DNA of 64,000 nt from Escherichia phage vB_VIPECOMC06. This document shows positions 3,447 through 35,918 of this stretch, piece by piece; within the stretch, counting starts at the first letter, position 1, and the number at the start of each line of letters is the position of its first letter. The stretch lies in the sequence record PQ416618.1. The stretch is one strand, 5' to 3'. The notes below the pieces were generated by a model that was given only the letters and a program-made list of their open reading frames with translations, did no database searches and was not told the origin of the DNA. Position numbers and translations under genes: made by a program.

Positions 3447-4010
3447 ATGAACTTATTTGATGATGACGTCCAGCTTAACGAGCACCAAATTGCATGGAAG
3501 TCTAATGACGCTGATGCGATTCAAAAATGTGCTGATATGTTTAAAGAAAAACCTGAGAATGAATTCTTTAAAATCATTAATGCTATTAATGAAAAGAAAT
3601 CTATGTCAATTGCTCAGGTCGACTACTCAAAATTTATGGTTGAGAACTCATTATCCCAGTTCCCAGAATGTATGCCAGCTGTTTACATGATGAACTTAGT
3701 CGGTTCTGAATTAAGTGATGAAGCGCACTTCAACTATATGATGGCGGCAATTCCGCGTGGTCGTCGATTCTCTAAATGGGCTAAACTAGTCGAAGACACT
3801 TCAGAGTTACTAGTTATCAAACTGTTGATGAAACATTACACAATCAACATGAATGATGCTACAGAGTATAAGCGGCTCCTTGAAAAAAATAACAAGTTGC
3901 CAATAGTCCTTAAAGAACTGAAGGCCATGGTCACTGATGAGTTTCTCAAAGAAGTTACAAAAAATGTGAAAGAACAAAAACAATTTAAAAAATTAGCATT
4001 GGAATGGTAA
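3447..4010 (+). CDS. 62: Clamp loader small subunit gp62
   Basis: 187 aa; ATG 2 nt after the gp44 stop; synteny 44-62-regA. Confidence 0.85.
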
Positions 4011-16874: not shown

Positions 16875-16903
16875 ATACTTACACTAACCAAGAGGAGAAC
16901 AAA

Positions 16904-30438: not shown

Positions 30439-32256
30439 ATGATTAAAAATGAAATTAAGGTATTGTCAGATGTAGAACATATTAAGAAACGCAGTGGCAT
30501 GTATATTGGTTCTTCGGCCAAAGAAGCCCACGAGCGTTTTTTGTTTGGTAAATATCAACAAGTTGAATATGTTCCTGGTCTGGTTAAATTAATCGATGAG
30601 ATTATTGACAACTCGGTTGATGAAGCTATTCGTACATCATTTAAGTTTGCAAATAAAATCGATGTGCAAATTAAAAATAATCAAGTTTCGGTGGAAGATA
30701 ACGGACGTGGTATTCCTCAAGGTTTAGTTACTGACCAAACAGGTGAACAAATTCCTGGGCCTGTAGCAGCCTGGACTATTCCAAAGGCTGGCGGCAACTT
30801 TGGCGATGACTCTGAACGCAAGACTGGTGGTATGAACGGCGTCGGGAGTAGTTTAACTAATATCTTCTCTACGTTGTTTACAGGCATCACGTCAGATGGC
30901 GAAAATGAAATCACCGTTAACTGTTCAAACGGAATGGAAAACAAATCATGGTCTTCTAAGAAATCTAAAGGTAAAGGCACTAAAGTAATCTTCACTCCTG
31001 ATTTCTCTTCATTTGAAGAACATAATTTATCTCAAATTTATTTAGATATTACTTTAGACCGACTTCAAACGTTGGCAGTCGTTTATCCTGATATCAAGTT
31101 CACATTTAATGGTAAAAAGGTTGATGGTAATTTTAAACGATTTGCTAAACAATTTGGCGAAGATAACATCATTCAAGAAAATGATAAAGTCTCTATAGCA
31201 TTCACAACATCACCAGACGGCTTCCGTCATTTAACTTATGTGAATAACATCCATACTAAAAATGGCGGTCATCATGTTGAATGTGTAATGGATGATATCT
31301 GCGAACATCTTTTGCCGGGTATTAAAAAGAAATATAAGGGTATTGAAGTCACTAAAGCTCGTGTTAAAGAATGCCTCACAATGTTGATGTTTATTAGAGA
31401 CATGAGCAACATGCGTTTTGATTCTCAGACTAAAGAACGTTTAACGTCAACGTATGGTGATATTCGTAATCATATCCAATTAGATGCTAAGAAAATTGCT
31501 CAGGCACTTCTTAAAAACGAAGCCTTGATTATGCCTATTGTTGAAGCAGCATTAGCTCGTAAATTGGCAGCAGAAAAGGCTGCAGAAACTAAAGCAGCTA
31601 AAAAGGCAACTAAAGCTAAGGTTCATAAGCATATTAAAGCTAACCAATGCGGTAAAGATGCAGATACGACATTGTTCTTAACAGAAGGTGATTCAGCAAT
31701 TGGTTATCTCATTGATGTTCGTGACCGTGAACTACACGGCGGATTCCCATTACGTGGTAAGGTGATGAATAGCTGGGGTATGTCATATGCTGATATGATG
31801 AAGAACAAAGAGCTCTTTGATATCTGTGCTATCACAGGTCTTATTCTTGGTGAAAAGGCAGAGAATACAAACTATCGTAATATTGCAATTATGACCGATG
31901 CCGATCATGACGGTCTTGGAAGTATTTATCCGGCTTTGCTTGCTTTCTTTAGTAATTGGCCTGAATTGTTTGAACAAGGACGTATTCGCTTTGTTAAAAC
32001 TCCTGTAATTATTGCACAAATTGGCAAAACTCAAAAATGGTTTTATACTGTAGCTGAGTATGAAGAAGCTAAAGATACACTGCCTAAGCATAGTATTCGA
32101 TACATCAAGGGATTGGGCTCCCTTGAAAAGTCAGAATATCGTGAAATGATTCAGAACCCTGTGTACGACGTAGTTAAACTTCCTGAAAATTGGAAAGAAC
32201 TCTTTGAAATGTTGTTGGGTGATGATTCAGAACTTCGTAAAGAATGGATGTCCTAA
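30439..32256 (+). CDS. 39: Topoisomerase II large subunit gp39, unsplit form (GyrB-like GHKL ATPase plus TOPRIM)
   Basis: 605 aa; GHKL motif EDNGRGIP, TOPRIM LTEGDSAIG; continuous through the region that is a separate gene 60 in T4. Confidence 0.9.
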   Translation: MIKNEIKVLSDVEHIKKRSGMYIGSSAKEAHERFLFGKYQQVEYVPGLVKLIDEIIDNSVDEAIRTSFKFANKIDVQIKNNQVSVEDNGRGIPQGLVTDQTGEQIPGPVAAWTIPKAGGNFGDDSERKTGGMNGVGSSLTNIFSTLFTGITSDGENEITVNCSNGMENKSWSSKKSKGKGTKVIFTPDFSSFEEHNLSQIYLDITLDRLQTLAVVYPDIKFTFNGKKVDGNFKRFAKQFGEDNIIQENDKVSIAFTTSPDGFRHLTYVNNIHTKNGGHHVECVMDDICEHLLPGIKKKYKGIEVTKARVKECLTMLMFIRDMSNMRFDSQTKERLTSTYGDIRNHIQLDAKKIAQALLKNEALIMPIVEAALARKLAAEKAAETKAAKKATKAKVHKHIKANQCGKDADTTLFLTEGDSAIGYLIDVRDRELHGGFPLRGKVMNSWGMSYADMMKNKELFDICAITGLILGEKAENTNYRNIAIMTDADHDGLGSIYPALLAFFSNWPELFEQGRIRFVKTPVIIAQIGKTQKWFYTVAEYEEAKDTLPKHSIRYIKGLGSLEKSEYREMIQNPVYDVVKLPENWKELFEMLLGDDSELRKEWMS

Positions 32257-32278
32257 GCTCCTTCTGGAGCTTCATTTT
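32257..32278 (+). terminator. Hairpin plus U-rich tail after gene 39 (gctccTTCTggagc, ttcatttt)
   Basis: 5-bp stem directly after the gp39 stop with a T-rich tail. Confidence 0.5.
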
Positions 32279-32298
32279 AATTTTAATAAGGCTTAATT

Positions 32299-33399
32299 AT
32301 GAAAGTTATGTTTATCCCATCTCGTGCAGTCCCATTTAATCCTGACCGTGTACAAGGTGGTCTTGAAGCAGTACATTTAAATGTGTTGAAATATCTTGTG
32401 TCCATCGGTGCTGATATTGATTATATCGGCTTTGATAATGACACGTTTGGTGACTGGAAAGTTACACACCATCCTGTTGGTCATCTGACTAAATTTAGCC
32501 TAGGTATGAGTTATACTATGGCTCGTAAGATTGTTGAACTAGCCGGCATTCATGAATACGATTTTGTTGTTACTATGGAACCGACTAAACTAACCGTTCA
32601 GGCAATTAAAGACGCAGGTCTCTCTAAAGTTCATAAGAATTTTATGGCAACACCATTTGAACCGGTATCTCGTGGCATTGTTCAAATTTGGGACCAGACT
32701 ATTCAAATTCATAAGAATGGCGGCAAGAGTTATGCTCCTACTAAAGCCTTCCGTGAATTTGAACGTAAATATTGTTATATGACTTCAGGTCTGACTGACA
32801 AAATTGATTATGATTATTGGCGAGCAAATCCGTTGTTTGAAGCCGAAGATTATCCGGTTATTTGTTTGAATGAGAAACCTGAAGTTCTTCCGGCGACTGA
32901 TCTGATTATTAGTGCACAACGTTATGACACTAAAATGCGTCGTACTGATGTTGCTCTTGAAGCGATTAAAGCACTAGGCGAAAATGGTGTAGGATACTGT
33001 CCTAGTAAATGGGCACCACCAGCTAAATATCCTGTTATTATTGATGCTCCACACAGTGAAATCATGGAACGTCTTAAAACAGCTAAAGCGCTTATTAATA
33101 CATGTCCTGACACAGGTACGGTAGAGAATAGTTCTATTGAAGCCATCTCTAAAGGTGTCCCTGTAATCCAGTTAGTTTTTAAGGATTATCCTCATGCGAC
33201 ATTCGAATACGACCCAGATACTGTGCGTGTAGAAATTGATTCCTCTACTCCTAAGAAAGAAGTAGTTGCGCTTTACACAAAAGCTGTATTAGAATTCACT
33301 GACACATACGAAGCTCGAGTTAAACGTGCTGAAGCAGTATGGAAGAAGTATAACCGAGATGCAGTTGTTGCGATGTGGGATAAAATCTTCACAGCGTAA
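32299..33399 (+). CDS. GT-B fold glycosyltransferase (GT4-like); candidate DNA hydroxymethylcytosine glycosyl/arabinosyltransferase
   Basis: 366 aa; C-terminal GT4-like E-x7-E motif with G-x-P-V-I (VENSSIEAISKGVPVIQ); N-terminal MKVMFIP...GG.E typical of a GT-B N-domain; not recognisably T4 alpha-gt or beta-gt. Confidence 0.65.
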   Translation: MKVMFIPSRAVPFNPDRVQGGLEAVHLNVLKYLVSIGADIDYIGFDNDTFGDWKVTHHPVGHLTKFSLGMSYTMARKIVELAGIHEYDFVVTMEPTKLTVQAIKDAGLSKVHKNFMATPFEPVSRGIVQIWDQTIQIHKNGGKSYAPTKAFREFERKYCYMTSGLTDKIDYDYWRANPLFEAEDYPVICLNEKPEVLPATDLIISAQRYDTKMRRTDVALEAIKALGENGVGYCPSKWAPPAKYPVIIDAPHSEIMERLKTAKALINTCPDTGTVENSSIEAISKGVPVIQLVFKDYPHATFEYDPDTVRVEIDSSTPKKEVVALYTKAVLEFTDTYEARVKRAEAVWKKYNRDAVVAMWDKIFTA

Positions 33400-33491
33400 A
33401 TCCTGAATTGCCTGGGGCACTATTACACATAAGATGATAGATTATATGGTCTTTAGTAATAGTGCCCTAGGAATCTACTGAAGAGAATATT

Positions 33492-33692
33492 ATGAGAACA
33501 TATAACGTGGACTTGGAACTTTTTGATAAAGCAGTGCTCCGGGAATTCCGGCTTATCCAAAGATTTTTTGATATCGAGTCAGCAGAGTTCTTTAAAGAAC
33601 GCTTTAAAGAAATTCGATATAAAATACAAACCGATACAGCTACTAAAGAAGAACTTCTTGAAGTAGCAGAAATTTTTAAACGTAACTTGTGA
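33492..33692 (+). CDS. Small protein in the rIIA.1 position (66 aa)
   Basis: ATG with RBS gaagaga; immediately upstream of rIIA. Confidence 0.4.
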   Translation: MRTYNVDLELFDKAVLREFRLIQRFFDIESAEFFKERFKEIRYKIQTDTATKEELLEVAEIFKRNL

Positions 33693-33704
33693 TGAGAGAA
33701 AAAT

Positions 33705-35918
33705 ATGATTATTGAAACGGCTAAAGAAACGATTATTGGTTCAGGTGGTAAGAGCACAGCATTTACTATTCAAGGCAATAGCAAAGTTTATAAGATTTTG
33801 TCTAATGACCTTTATACAAACAAAGAATTGGCTTGTGTACGTGAATTAATCACAAACTGTATCGATGGTCAAATTCTTAATGGTTGCACTGATAAGTTTA
33901 TTGTTCAGGCTCCAGGTCGTTTAGACCCACGTTTTGTAGTTCGAGACTTTGGTCCTGGTATGAGTGATTTCACCATTCGAGGTAATGACGAAGAGCCAGG
34001 AATCTATAACTCATATTTTGCTTCAACTAAAACATCGAGTAACGATTTCATTGGTGGATTCGGACTCGGCTCTAAAGCTCCACTAGCATATACCGATACG
34101 TTTAACCTTACGTCTTATCACAATGGTGAAGTTCGTGGTTATGTAATTTATCAAGATGACACAGGTCCACAGATTAAGCCAACCTTCGTAGATAAGATGG
34201 GTCCTGATGATCGGACCGGCGTTGAAGTAGTTGTGCCTGTTAACCCAGAAGATTTTGAAAAGTTCGCATCTGAAATTGCATATGTTATGCGTCCTCTCGG
34301 TGATATTGCAGAAGTTCGTGGTGTTAAAGATATCAAATACTTCCCGGAATTCGATGATGTTTATTTAGCCAAGGAAGCTCCATGGGGTGAACGTGGTAAT
34401 ATCATGGCTGTTTATGGTGGTATTGTATATCCAATCGGAAGTGTTATTAAAGAACAAACATGGATGATGACGCGATGCACTACAGCTTATATTAAATTCC
34501 CTATGGGTGAACTAGATGTAGCCCCGTCTCGTGAAGCATTGTCATTTGATAAACGTACAGTAGCAAATATCCATAAACGCGTTGCAGAAATCGATGCTAA
34601 ATTGTTCGCTGAAGATTCTAAGAAATGGATTGATTGTAAATACCCACGTCATGTGTTCCGTGAAATTGATTCTCTTGGCTATACCGCTCGCAAATACATG
34701 GAAAAGGCTGGGTCTAATATTGAATCACTGAAATACTCTAAAGAACAACTAACTTATTCCGAGTTGTACAAACGTTTTAAAATGGGACCTGAGTGGTGTA
34801 ATCTTGGCGTCGTATACGATATCGTTGAATCCCCTCGTCTTCGTCGTATTCGTGAAAGCGGTAGCTCAACGGCAACCATTTCAATTAACAGTCTGATTGG
34901 CATTAACATTAAAAATGTTGAAATTGTTATTGACGACGTTAAGGGACGCGTTCCATTAATGCGAGCTCTTAATTCAATTGAAATGTCTAAAGACGAGGTT
35001 AAATTAACCGGTAAAGTTCCACGCGGTTTTGGTAAAAGCGTACTATTCGTTGACCCTACAGACGAAGATGCAATGAAACTTCTGGAACGCCTTAAAGTTA
35101 TCTTTGATGGCGACAACATTAACATGTACAAGACTTCAGAGCTTTTACAAATCGTTAAGCCATGGATTGAAGTCAAGAAACGGACTAATGAGCCTCGTCC
35201 TAAATCCCCGAGTGCTCATCGATTCTTTAAGAATGAAAACGATGTTTGGGTATCAGAAGACCTCTTTATTCCGGCAAGTGAAGCAGATGAAATCCAAGGT
35301 TATGCTATAGTTCGTAATCGTTCTAATGCTGAATGTCTTGACGCAGATAAAGGTTGGTTGAACTATGACTCCAATTTCTTGACTCGTATTGCTGATTTGT
35401 CAGGTATTAAAGAGTTCACTGTAGTCCGTCCACAGATTGCTAAGAAAGTTCGTAAACTTGGTGAAGTAGAATGCTTGTTCGAAAAATCAATTAATGACTA
35501 TATTACGCTAATTGATAAAGTGGATTATGATGAGTATGTATCACCAAGTCGTAGAGCACAGCCTTATTTGAATCATATTACTCGTAATGAAGAGCTTAAC
35601 TTCCTTAGTAAATATTTTAGCTCTAAGAACAAAGAAATCAGTAAAGATTTTGCAAAACTTTCAACAGTAAATAATCGTTGGGGTTGGAATCGATTCTCAG
35701 GTGCTACTAACAGAGATCTGAATAAGAAGTTAGAATTGTGTGCTAAAATTTTCGATAAGCTTAAAGATAATGCTTACGATAATGATGATAAAATGGTTAT
35801 TGAATTTGAAACCAATTATCATATTGTGTCAGAATACATGGGACGACGTGGTACTCTTTCTAAAGAACAGGTCGCTCAAATCGTTAAATTCATGAAGGCC
35901 GTGGAAGCGGCCAAATAA
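33705..35918 (+). CDS. rIIA: rIIA protein
   Basis: 737 aa; N-terminus MIIETAKETIIGSGGKS...RELITNCID...RDFGPGMS (GHKL-like) matches T4 rIIA; followed by rIIB. Confidence 0.9.
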   Translation: MIIETAKETIIGSGGKSTAFTIQGNSKVYKILSNDLYTNKELACVRELITNCIDGQILNGCTDKFIVQAPGRLDPRFVVRDFGPGMSDFTIRGNDEEPGIYNSYFASTKTSSNDFIGGFGLGSKAPLAYTDTFNLTSYHNGEVRGYVIYQDDTGPQIKPTFVDKMGPDDRTGVEVVVPVNPEDFEKFASEIAYVMRPLGDIAEVRGVKDIKYFPEFDDVYLAKEAPWGERGNIMAVYGGIVYPIGSVIKEQTWMMTRCTTAYIKFPMGELDVAPSREALSFDKRTVANIHKRVAEIDAKLFAEDSKKWIDCKYPRHVFREIDSLGYTARKYMEKAGSNIESLKYSKEQLTYSELYKRFKMGPEWCNLGVVYDIVESPRLRRIRESGSSTATISINSLIGINIKNVEIVIDDVKGRVPLMRALNSIEMSKDEVKLTGKVPRGFGKSVLFVDPTDEDAMKLLERLKVIFDGDNINMYKTSELLQIVKPWIEVKKRTNEPRPKSPSAHRFFKNENDVWVSEDLFIPASEADEIQGYAIVRNRSNAECLDADKGWLNYDSNFLTRIADLSGIKEFTVVRPQIAKKVRKLGEVECLFEKSINDYITLIDKVDYDEYVSPSRRAQPYLNHITRNEELNFLSKYFSSKNKEISKDFAKLSTVNNRWGWNRFSGATNRDLNKKLELCAKIFDKLKDNAYDNDDKMVIEFETNYHIVSEYMGRRGTLSKEQVAQIVKFMKAVEAAK

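Follow-up and report, generated by a model that had tools for sequence, protein, structure and literature searches.

A very stable conserved hairpin between a glycosyltransferase gene and rIIA.1 in RB69-type phages, tentatively read as an RNA element on a decayed promoter/stem-loop cassette

Hairpins lying between the cistrons of a phage or bacterial message can serve as barriers to 3'-exonucleases or as RNase III sites, E. coli REP elements and certain sites of phage T7 being examples. Within the T-even phages, PeSL (promoter-early stem-loop) cassettes have been described for RB49 and phi1 (Arbiol et al. 2010, PMC2839356). The one stem-loop of this kind that has been reporter-tested, PeSL211/210, cut expression of a downstream lacZ about as strongly as the rrnB T1 terminator, and the same paper recalls the finding of Mosig et al. 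1998 that GGGC/GCCC motifs lie at T4 deletion end-points. A review of post-transcriptional control in T4 does not mention RNase III, and no role of this enzyme in processing the mRNAs of T-even phages is established.

For RB69 itself, 58 early promoters, 32 middle promoters and 31 terminators have been predicted (Nolan et al. 2006), with an HMM search that reported promoters scoring down to 4.9. None of these predicted promoters and terminators lies in RB69 2428-2519, the equivalent of the spacer described here, the nearest features being a middle promoter and a terminator that lie, respectively, upstream of gene 39 and after it. The gene that precedes this spacer in RB69, ORF003c, is a published candidate arabinosyl-hmC transferase (PMC6024577), and that paper is silent on the spacer between ORF003c and rIIA.1.

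The window, which is the whole 64,000-nucleotide stretch of Escherichia phage vB_VIPECOMC06 (PQ416618.1) that was analysed, comes from an RB69-type T-even phage of the genus Mosigvirus. Positions 32200-33800 match 163 phage records, nearly all of them Mosigvirus, at 95-99% identity, and the features of the locus are collected in Table 1. An earlier note on this DNA had described a perfect 12-bp inverted repeat with a 29-nt gap at 33415-33467, between the glycosyltransferase gene and rIIA.1. Its sequence and coordinates proved exact, as did its placement, the upstream reading frame ending at 33399, the 12-bp 5' arm starting 16 nt after the stop codon and position 33467 lying 24-25 nt 5' of the ATG at 33492; the stem is actually larger than described, with 16 bp and an additional inner helix.

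Table 1. Features of the gene 39-rIIA region in the window, with the hairpin and the promoter-like block of the ORF003c/rIIA.1 spacer.
Feature	Coordinates	Strand	Basis or remark
Gene 39 (fused 60plus39)	30439-32256	+	
Terminator-like hairpin 3' of gene 39	32255-32272	+	Terminator scan; annotated in relatives; RB69 TransTerm prediction 3649-3662
Glycosyltransferase, 366 aa, homologue of RB69 ORF003c	32299-33399	+	
Intergenic spacer ORF003c/rIIA.1, 92 nt	33400-33491		
5' arm CCTGGGGCACTATTAC	33411-33426	+	Pairs over 16 positions with 33456-33471
"Spacer" between the arms: internal loop, upper helix and apical loop GAUUA	33427-33455	+	Predicted fold
-10/start-like block CTTTAGTAATAGTGCCCTA, no usable -35	33451-33469	+	RB69 early-promoter matrix
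3' arm GTAATAGTGCCCTAGG	33456-33471	+	Repeat finder and fold
Shine-Dalgarno GAAGAG and rIIA.1 ATG	33480-33485 and 33492-33494	+	ORF list and sequence
rIIA.1	33492-33692	+	ORF list
rIIA, then rIIB	33705-35918 (rIIA)	+	

The core of the repeat consists of GGGCACTATTAC (33415-33426) and GTAATAGTGCCC (33456-33467), which are exact reverse complements. With a repeat finder the arms grow to 16 nt (33411-33426 and 33456-33471) and are 94% complementary; G33414/T33468, the sole non-Watson-Crick position, forms G.U in RNA of the + strand. Above this 16-bp stem, with its GGGGC...GCCC core, the predicted fold continues through a 4x2 internal loop, a 5-bp helix (33431-33435 with 33449-33453), a G/G mismatch and a 3-bp helix (33437-33439 with 33445-33447) to the apical GAUUA, giving a hairpin of 61 nt and 24 pairs (16 + 8). 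RNA folding, one of the checks proposed with the earlier note, gave an energy of -35.1 kcal/mol, with z = -5.8 in a 96-nt context and z = -7.8 in a 74-nt context, and none of 200 shuffles folded as well in either context. The base of the hairpin lies 8 nt 5' of the rIIA.1 Shine-Dalgarno sequence, and the stem is followed by AATCTACTGAAGAG, without a U-tract.

The length of the perfect repeat is in itself not exceptional. First-order Markov simulations of the 64-kb window yield an expectation of 0.37 per 64 kb for perfect inverted repeats that reach 12 bp or more and have a spacer of 3-60 nt; one or more such repeats turn up in 30% of the simulated sequences, so the earlier claim that a 12-bp perfect palindrome is unlikely by chance does not hold by itself. 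The repeat at 33415-33467 is the window's only such repeat of at least 11 bp. The hairpin, at -33.8 kcal/mol, also exceeds every other hairpin domain on the window's + strand in stability. Of the top 18 on that strand, 17 lie in coding sequence and this hairpin alone is fully intergenic, and the best-ranked 100-nt fold window on either strand includes it. The hairpin is more than a chance structure because of its stability, its rank in the window and its conservation in about 154 genomes, not because of its 12-bp length. A search for a second copy in the window with at most two mismatches found none, a tRNA/tmRNA scan found neither, and an Rfam scan of 32000-35000 at E <= 10 returned nothing, its match elsewhere to a lncRNA being irrelevant.

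Conservation in related phages, which had likewise been proposed as a check, was found in about 154 Mosigvirus records. The 92-nt spacer is present in 154 phage records, all Mosigvirus-type, at 93-99% identity and in one copy per genome except in Shigella phage JK45. Each record carries it at this single place, with no copies elsewhere in phage genomes, and it occurs in Mosigvirus alone. Scans of IMG/VR and of metagenomes added just 3 and 4 more copies, respectively, without a new lineage of intermediate divergence. A host-derived repeat or MITE was considered as a source and rejected, there being no match in 5,426 E. coli genomes. Inheritance of the hairpin together with the glycosyltransferase gene was rejected as well: the homologues in Acinetobacter phages (about 42% identity) have different surroundings, and what follows them is a short terminator-like hairpin of the ordinary kind. 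In the Acinetobacter T4-like phages, Lazarus (locus L018, 1501-3796) among them, two such homologues of the ORF003c-type transferase, of about 42% identity, stand in tandem beside thymidylate kinase, and a short GC hairpin, GGAGCCTTCGGGCTCC, separates the two.

The exception, JK45 (locus L002, 1306-2311), carries a perfect 503-bp tandem duplication corresponding to about 33005-33507 of the window, which takes in the 3' part of ORF003c, the entire spacer and the first 16 nt of rIIA.1. A chimeric ORF of 136 aa, which the annotation lists as a hypothetical protein, results from the duplication; the duplication could be real or an assembly artefact. Cassette shuffling, with this ORF as an extra gene between two repeat copies, was rejected as an explanation, the arrangement being a plain tandem duplication whose junctions lie outside the repeat.

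An alignment of 22 copies of the spacer, 18 of them distinct, shows that the perfect 12-bp form is the minority state. G33415 is found in this phage and in Shf125875 alone among the 22 copies, and the majority A opposite C33467 forms an A x C mismatch, leaving 11 perfect bp in the majority form. In AV115, AV109 and AV118 the 3' arm carries CCTCAGG, and these two changes mend both the A x C mismatch and the adjacent G.U pair, yielding 16 perfect Watson-Crick pairs; the pair 33415/33467 is seen in the states G-C, A-U and A x C. Further changes give G.U pairs on the + strand only, namely 33418 C>T and 33439 A>G in SQ17 and 33465 C>T in ESCO47 and EP32B, the change at 33439 lying in the inner helix, where the pair is retained as G.U. 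One pair each is broken in RB69 (33463 T>C), in GADS24 (33456 G>A) and in the OCHD metagenome contig (33471 G>C). The loop polymorphisms, at 33428, 33430, 33440 and 33455, all fall at predicted unpaired positions. All five variants that were folded have the same architecture, and in all five the sense fold is better than the antisense fold (-24.6 to -35.3 versus -17.6 to -30.1). None of the 22 copies has an indel or has lost the fold, and positions 33472-33491 are invariant across all aligned copies.

The AV phages show some further peculiarities of this region. In AV115 and AV109 (loci L010 and L011, at the equivalent of 33462-33491 of the window), CAG replaces the TAG of the 3' arm, and rIIA.1 is annotated from a GTG inside the hairpin, with 231 instead of 201 nt; the 231-nt coding sequence is probably an annotation artefact. 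In AV109 (L011, 1-458), a homing-endonuclease gene lies directly 5' of the glycosyltransferase gene, a place taken in other Mosigviruses by the end of gene 39, and the AV109 glycosyltransferase is the most divergent (95.4%).

The spacer is less variable than its surroundings. In a comparison of 15 genomes, nucleotide diversity is 0.029 over the whole 92-nt spacer (10 of 92 positions variable), 0.012 in the inner 11 bp of the stem (2 of 22), 0.027 in the loop (3 of 29) and 0 in the 20 nt 5' of the ATG (0 of 20). At third codon positions it is 0.117 in ORF003c (138 of 366), 0.061 in rIIA.1 (13 of 66) and 0.063 at the 5' end of rIIA (13 of 65). The spacer is thus 2-4 times less variable than neighbouring synonymous sites and more constrained than these, a conservation that could partly reflect short divergence time, because all copies come from one genus and are about 2-6% divergent. 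Covariation, counted over the 22 copies with their low within-genus diversity, is not significant, 408-498 of 500 shuffles reaching the observed values. A single pair is changed on both sides, and substitutions at paired positions keep pairing in three cases and break it in three, which is no better than chance.

Invariance is also seen at the end of the upstream gene. No third position varies in the last 9 codons of the ORF003c-type gene, nor does any of the 9 nt with which the spacer opens (33370-33408 altogether). This run is long for the gene and not extreme, the longest being 16 codons and 38% of all third positions being variable. The same end of ORF003c contains UCUUCA (33386-33391), which can pair with the rIIA.1 Shine-Dalgarno region.

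The spacer retains the register of an early-promoter cassette and lacks a promoter score. A simple sigma-70 scan found no promoter in it. A two-block matrix (UP/-35 and -10/start) was built from 23 RB69 early promoters of Nolan et al. 2006, which in leave-one-out scoring reach 22.6 in the median and 3.4 at the lowest. In the window the matrix picks out about 19 clear early promoters. The best spacer site totals 0.3, under all 23 reference promoters. The -10/start block of this site, CTTTAGTAATAGTGCCCTA, scores +6.4, which places it in the top 0.09% of positions and makes it comparable with the corresponding T4 and IME08 blocks; the -35/UP block scores -6.1, and the -10 of the 3' arm (TAATAG) has G for the near-invariant T at -7. 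The start-like A33469 (in GCCCTA) lies exactly 22 nt from the rIIA.1 ATG, and the leaders of the window's 19 cassettes, counted from start site to ATG, have a median of 22 nt and mostly measure 19-22. A collinear 50-nt alignment of the spacer with the imm promoter cassette can be drawn (TAGATTAT..ATGGTCTTTAGTAATAGT.GCCCTA..AATCTACTGAAGAG versus TACATTATAGATGGACTATAGT.ATAGTAGTCCTATCAAATCAACTAAGGAG), which taken alone is not significant (P about 0.12). The -10-like TGaTAGATT of the loop, to which the earlier note had drawn attention, does not withstand scoring: its -10 block is -5.8 and its total -13 or lower against the median of 22.6, with no -35 at 16-18 nt.

Three other promoter candidates were rejected. 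A MotA-box middle promoter would depend on a sole TGC-like match that needs T33409, which is A or C in other copies, and its spacing is wrong. An antisense promoter on the perfect - strand TATAAT of the loop (33446-33441) is without a -35, the best - strand score in the spacer being 1.4 and lying elsewhere. Homology of the loop to the IME08 promoter, suggestive on inspection, reached only P = 0.04 in local alignment, in a different register. Further downstream, within rIIA.1 and upstream of rIIA, lies a T4-type middle-promoter-like site (cGCTTTA-N13-TAAAAT, 33601-33625), which is a middle promoter in the SA35RD annotation and is missing from the RB69 list of Nolan et al. 2006, and which could allow expression of rIIA independently of read-through.

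The strong early-promoter cassettes of the window, about 19 in number, start on the + strand at 16881, 17456, 17886, 18197, 22086, 23567, 23697, 24437, 27579, 28526, 29106, 37733, 38242, 38503, 40809, 43323, 53840, 57810 and 58255. Many of them have inverted repeats of 7-8 bp flanking or overlapping the -10 box, such as TAGGGCTA...TAGCCCTA, GGTCTAT..ATAGACC and AACCAAGGATGGTT, and their leader to the ATG is very regular at about 22 nt. PeSL-like architecture is widespread in Mosigvirus.

These results suggest, tentatively, that the hairpin functions as RNA in a read-through transcript of ORF003c and rIIA.1, on a decayed promoter/stem-loop cassette, and serves there as an attenuator, a 3'-end protector or a processing site. 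The spacer would retain the skeleton of a T-even early-promoter/stem-loop cassette, with a -10/start block, a 22-nt leader and a Shine-Dalgarno sequence in register with the rIIA.1 ATG. Loss of the -35/UP half and of the critical T at -7 would have left no autonomous early promoter, and a 16-bp inverted copy of the -10/start block, lying upstream, would give rise to a much larger hairpin. Because rIIA.1 appears to have no promoter of its own, it would have to be read from upstream, by read-through of gene 39 and ORF003c, and because it would be read from upstream, each read-through transcript would carry the hairpin just 5' of the rIIA.1 ribosome-binding site. A role at the RNA level is favoured because the read-through RNA would contain the hairpin, with its base 8 nt before the Shine-Dalgarno sequence. 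We infer that RNA rather than DNA is most likely the active form, and likewise which of the RNA-level effects applies. The hairpin may act co- or post-transcriptionally by dampening read-through, as PeSL211/210 does; alternatively, it may stop 3'-exonucleases or be a site of double-strand-specific processing, so that the ORF003c and rIIA.1-rIIA messages would have separate fates. A literature search for transcript ends, transcript maps or RNA-seq in any Mosigvirus found nothing usable.

A more elaborate role, as an RNA switch for translation of rIIA.1 and perhaps of rIIA, follows from modelling of alternative folds and is improbable. In RNA without the 5' arm, 33450-33458 is predicted to pair with 33476-33484, a fold of about -10 kcal/mol that would bury the Shine-Dalgarno sequence and whose stability does not exceed that of shuffled sequence. 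In a 150-nt read-through RNA the hairpin blocks this pairing, and a 6-bp helix of 33386-33391 with 33479-33484 is predicted instead. If such a switch were true, rII expression would hinge on whether the arabinosyl-transferase gene is transcribed through or translated.

Of the other explanations, a neutral relic is the serious one; less probability attaches to a weak promoter, to a DNA operator or to a canonical terminator. The hairpin could be without present function, the cassette having been inactivated when ORF003c was inserted upstream and the repeat simply persisting through the recent divergence of Mosigvirus. Such persistence agrees with a cassette whose register is kept and whose -35 is dead, with the lack of significant covariation, with the tolerance of pair-breaking substitutions in RB69, GADS24 and OCHD, and with the A x C mismatch of the majority form. 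A decaying sequence would nevertheless not be expected to form the most stable + strand hairpin in 64 kb. The spacer is also 2-4 times less variable than adjacent synonymous sites, and none of the 22 copies shows an indel or loss of the fold; the relic, while it deserves serious weight, is on balance unlikely. A live but unconventional promoter for rIIA.1-rIIA within the hairpin, using either the loop TGaTAGATT or the 3'-arm TAATAG/GCCCTA and modulated by the repeat, is doubtful. T4 and IME08 do have an early promoter at the same position, no other early promoter is predicted from gene 39 to rIIA, the 3'-arm -10/start block is in the range of real promoters, and within TAGATT the position that matters least, 33440, is the one with the common G/A polymorphism. 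Against this stand a total score below all 23 reference promoters, the missing near-invariant T at -7 of TAATAG, the -5.8 block of TGaTAGATT with no -35 at 16-18 nt, and the HMM search of Nolan et al. 2006, which reported scores as low as 4.9 and has nothing here.

The repeat could also act at the DNA level, as an operator for a dimeric phage or host protein, as a cruciform or as a recombination signal. The GGGC...GCCC stem is of the motif type found at T4 deletion end-points (Mosig et al. 1998, via PMC2839356), and the loop is as conserved as the stem. The operator reading, which the earlier note had put forward, finds no support in the geometry, 16-bp half-sites 29 bp apart not being the arrangement of a dimeric operator, or in the relatives, most copies having G.T and A.C positions that break the DNA palindrome and are tolerated in RNA. 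The element is moreover single-copy, with no relative elsewhere in the window or genome, and the junctions of the JK45 duplication do not use the repeat; a DNA element is very unlikely. A stable RNA stem-loop serving as a processing or termination signal had been the earlier note's other proposal, and it stands in part: the stem-loop is supported by the fold, by the advantage of sense over antisense, by G.U pairs on the + strand and by loop polymorphisms at unpaired positions, and the canonical terminator is not, there being no U-run. A rho-independent terminator of the ORF003c transcript would suit a strong GC-containing stem directly after a stop codon, but the next bases are AATCTACTGAAGAG, with no T-run, the 29-nt loop far exceeds the loops of terminators, and the hairpin is called neither by the scan used here nor by TransTerm in RB69. 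In annotated relatives, ARNold, WebGeSTer and TransTermHP skip this hairpin yet call the gene-39 terminator, and a canonical terminator is accordingly the least probable of the explanations.

If the hairpin is indeed an RNA element on a decayed cassette, the spacer would be a case of a T-even cassette that lost its promoter and kept or enlarged its stem-loop beside a horizontally acquired gene, and transcription of the classic rII region would be altered relative to T4. ORF003c, the gene concerned, distinguishes RB69-type phages and is their candidate arabinosyl-hmC transferase. The hairpin, a very stable RNA structure, has gone unannotated in about 150 phage genomes, phage-therapy isolates among them, and it bears on no major open question.

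In comparison with intercistronic REP and RNase III hairpins, the predicted structure is similar in being long and irregular (about 24 bp), with an internal loop and without a U-tract, on what would be a polycistronic message; it has no sequence similarity to E. coli repeats. An RNase III substrate has about two turns of double-stranded RNA, with which the predicted fold, a 24-bp helix with a 4x2 loop and a 1x1 mismatch, would be compatible.

In T4, the junction of gene 60 and rIIA.1 has an intact early promoter (GTTTAC-17-TATAAT, score 10.1), and in Dhakavirus IME08 a terminator-promoter cassette with GTTTAC-17-TAGGAT (score 18.4) lies between gene 39 and rIIA.1, whereas the Mosigvirus spacer has no such promoter. 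The IME08 interval (locus L020, 921-1500) is 580 nt long, is annotated as empty and holds two small ORFs; a hairpin lies right after gene 39, and a textbook terminator, AAGGGCCGCAAGGCCCTTTT, is followed by an early promoter with TG. The T4 and IME08 promoters occupy the same syntenic place as the Mosigvirus spacer, upstream of rIIA.1 or of a preceding small ORF, at a similar distance from the start codon.

The comparison with PeSL cassettes brings out differences as well as likenesses. A PeSL unit includes a strong early promoter of sigma-70-like type (-35 GTTTAC and a -10). In the Mosigvirus spacer no functional -35/-10 is predicted (0.3 versus at least 3.4), the stem has 16 + 8 bp instead of 7-9 bp, and the hairpin encloses the promoter-like region rather than lying within it. 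PeSL copies are repeated and recombining and flank variable ORFs, whereas the element described here is single-copy and unlike the other cassettes in sequence. Shared with PeSL are the stable stem-loop (here -35 kcal/mol), its G-run/C-run core and its G.T pairs (here G.U), and also a start-site block followed by a 22-nt leader that includes a Shine-Dalgarno sequence, both in the register of the window's own early-promoter cassettes. The hairpin is an unannotated variant of this known T-even intergenic element.
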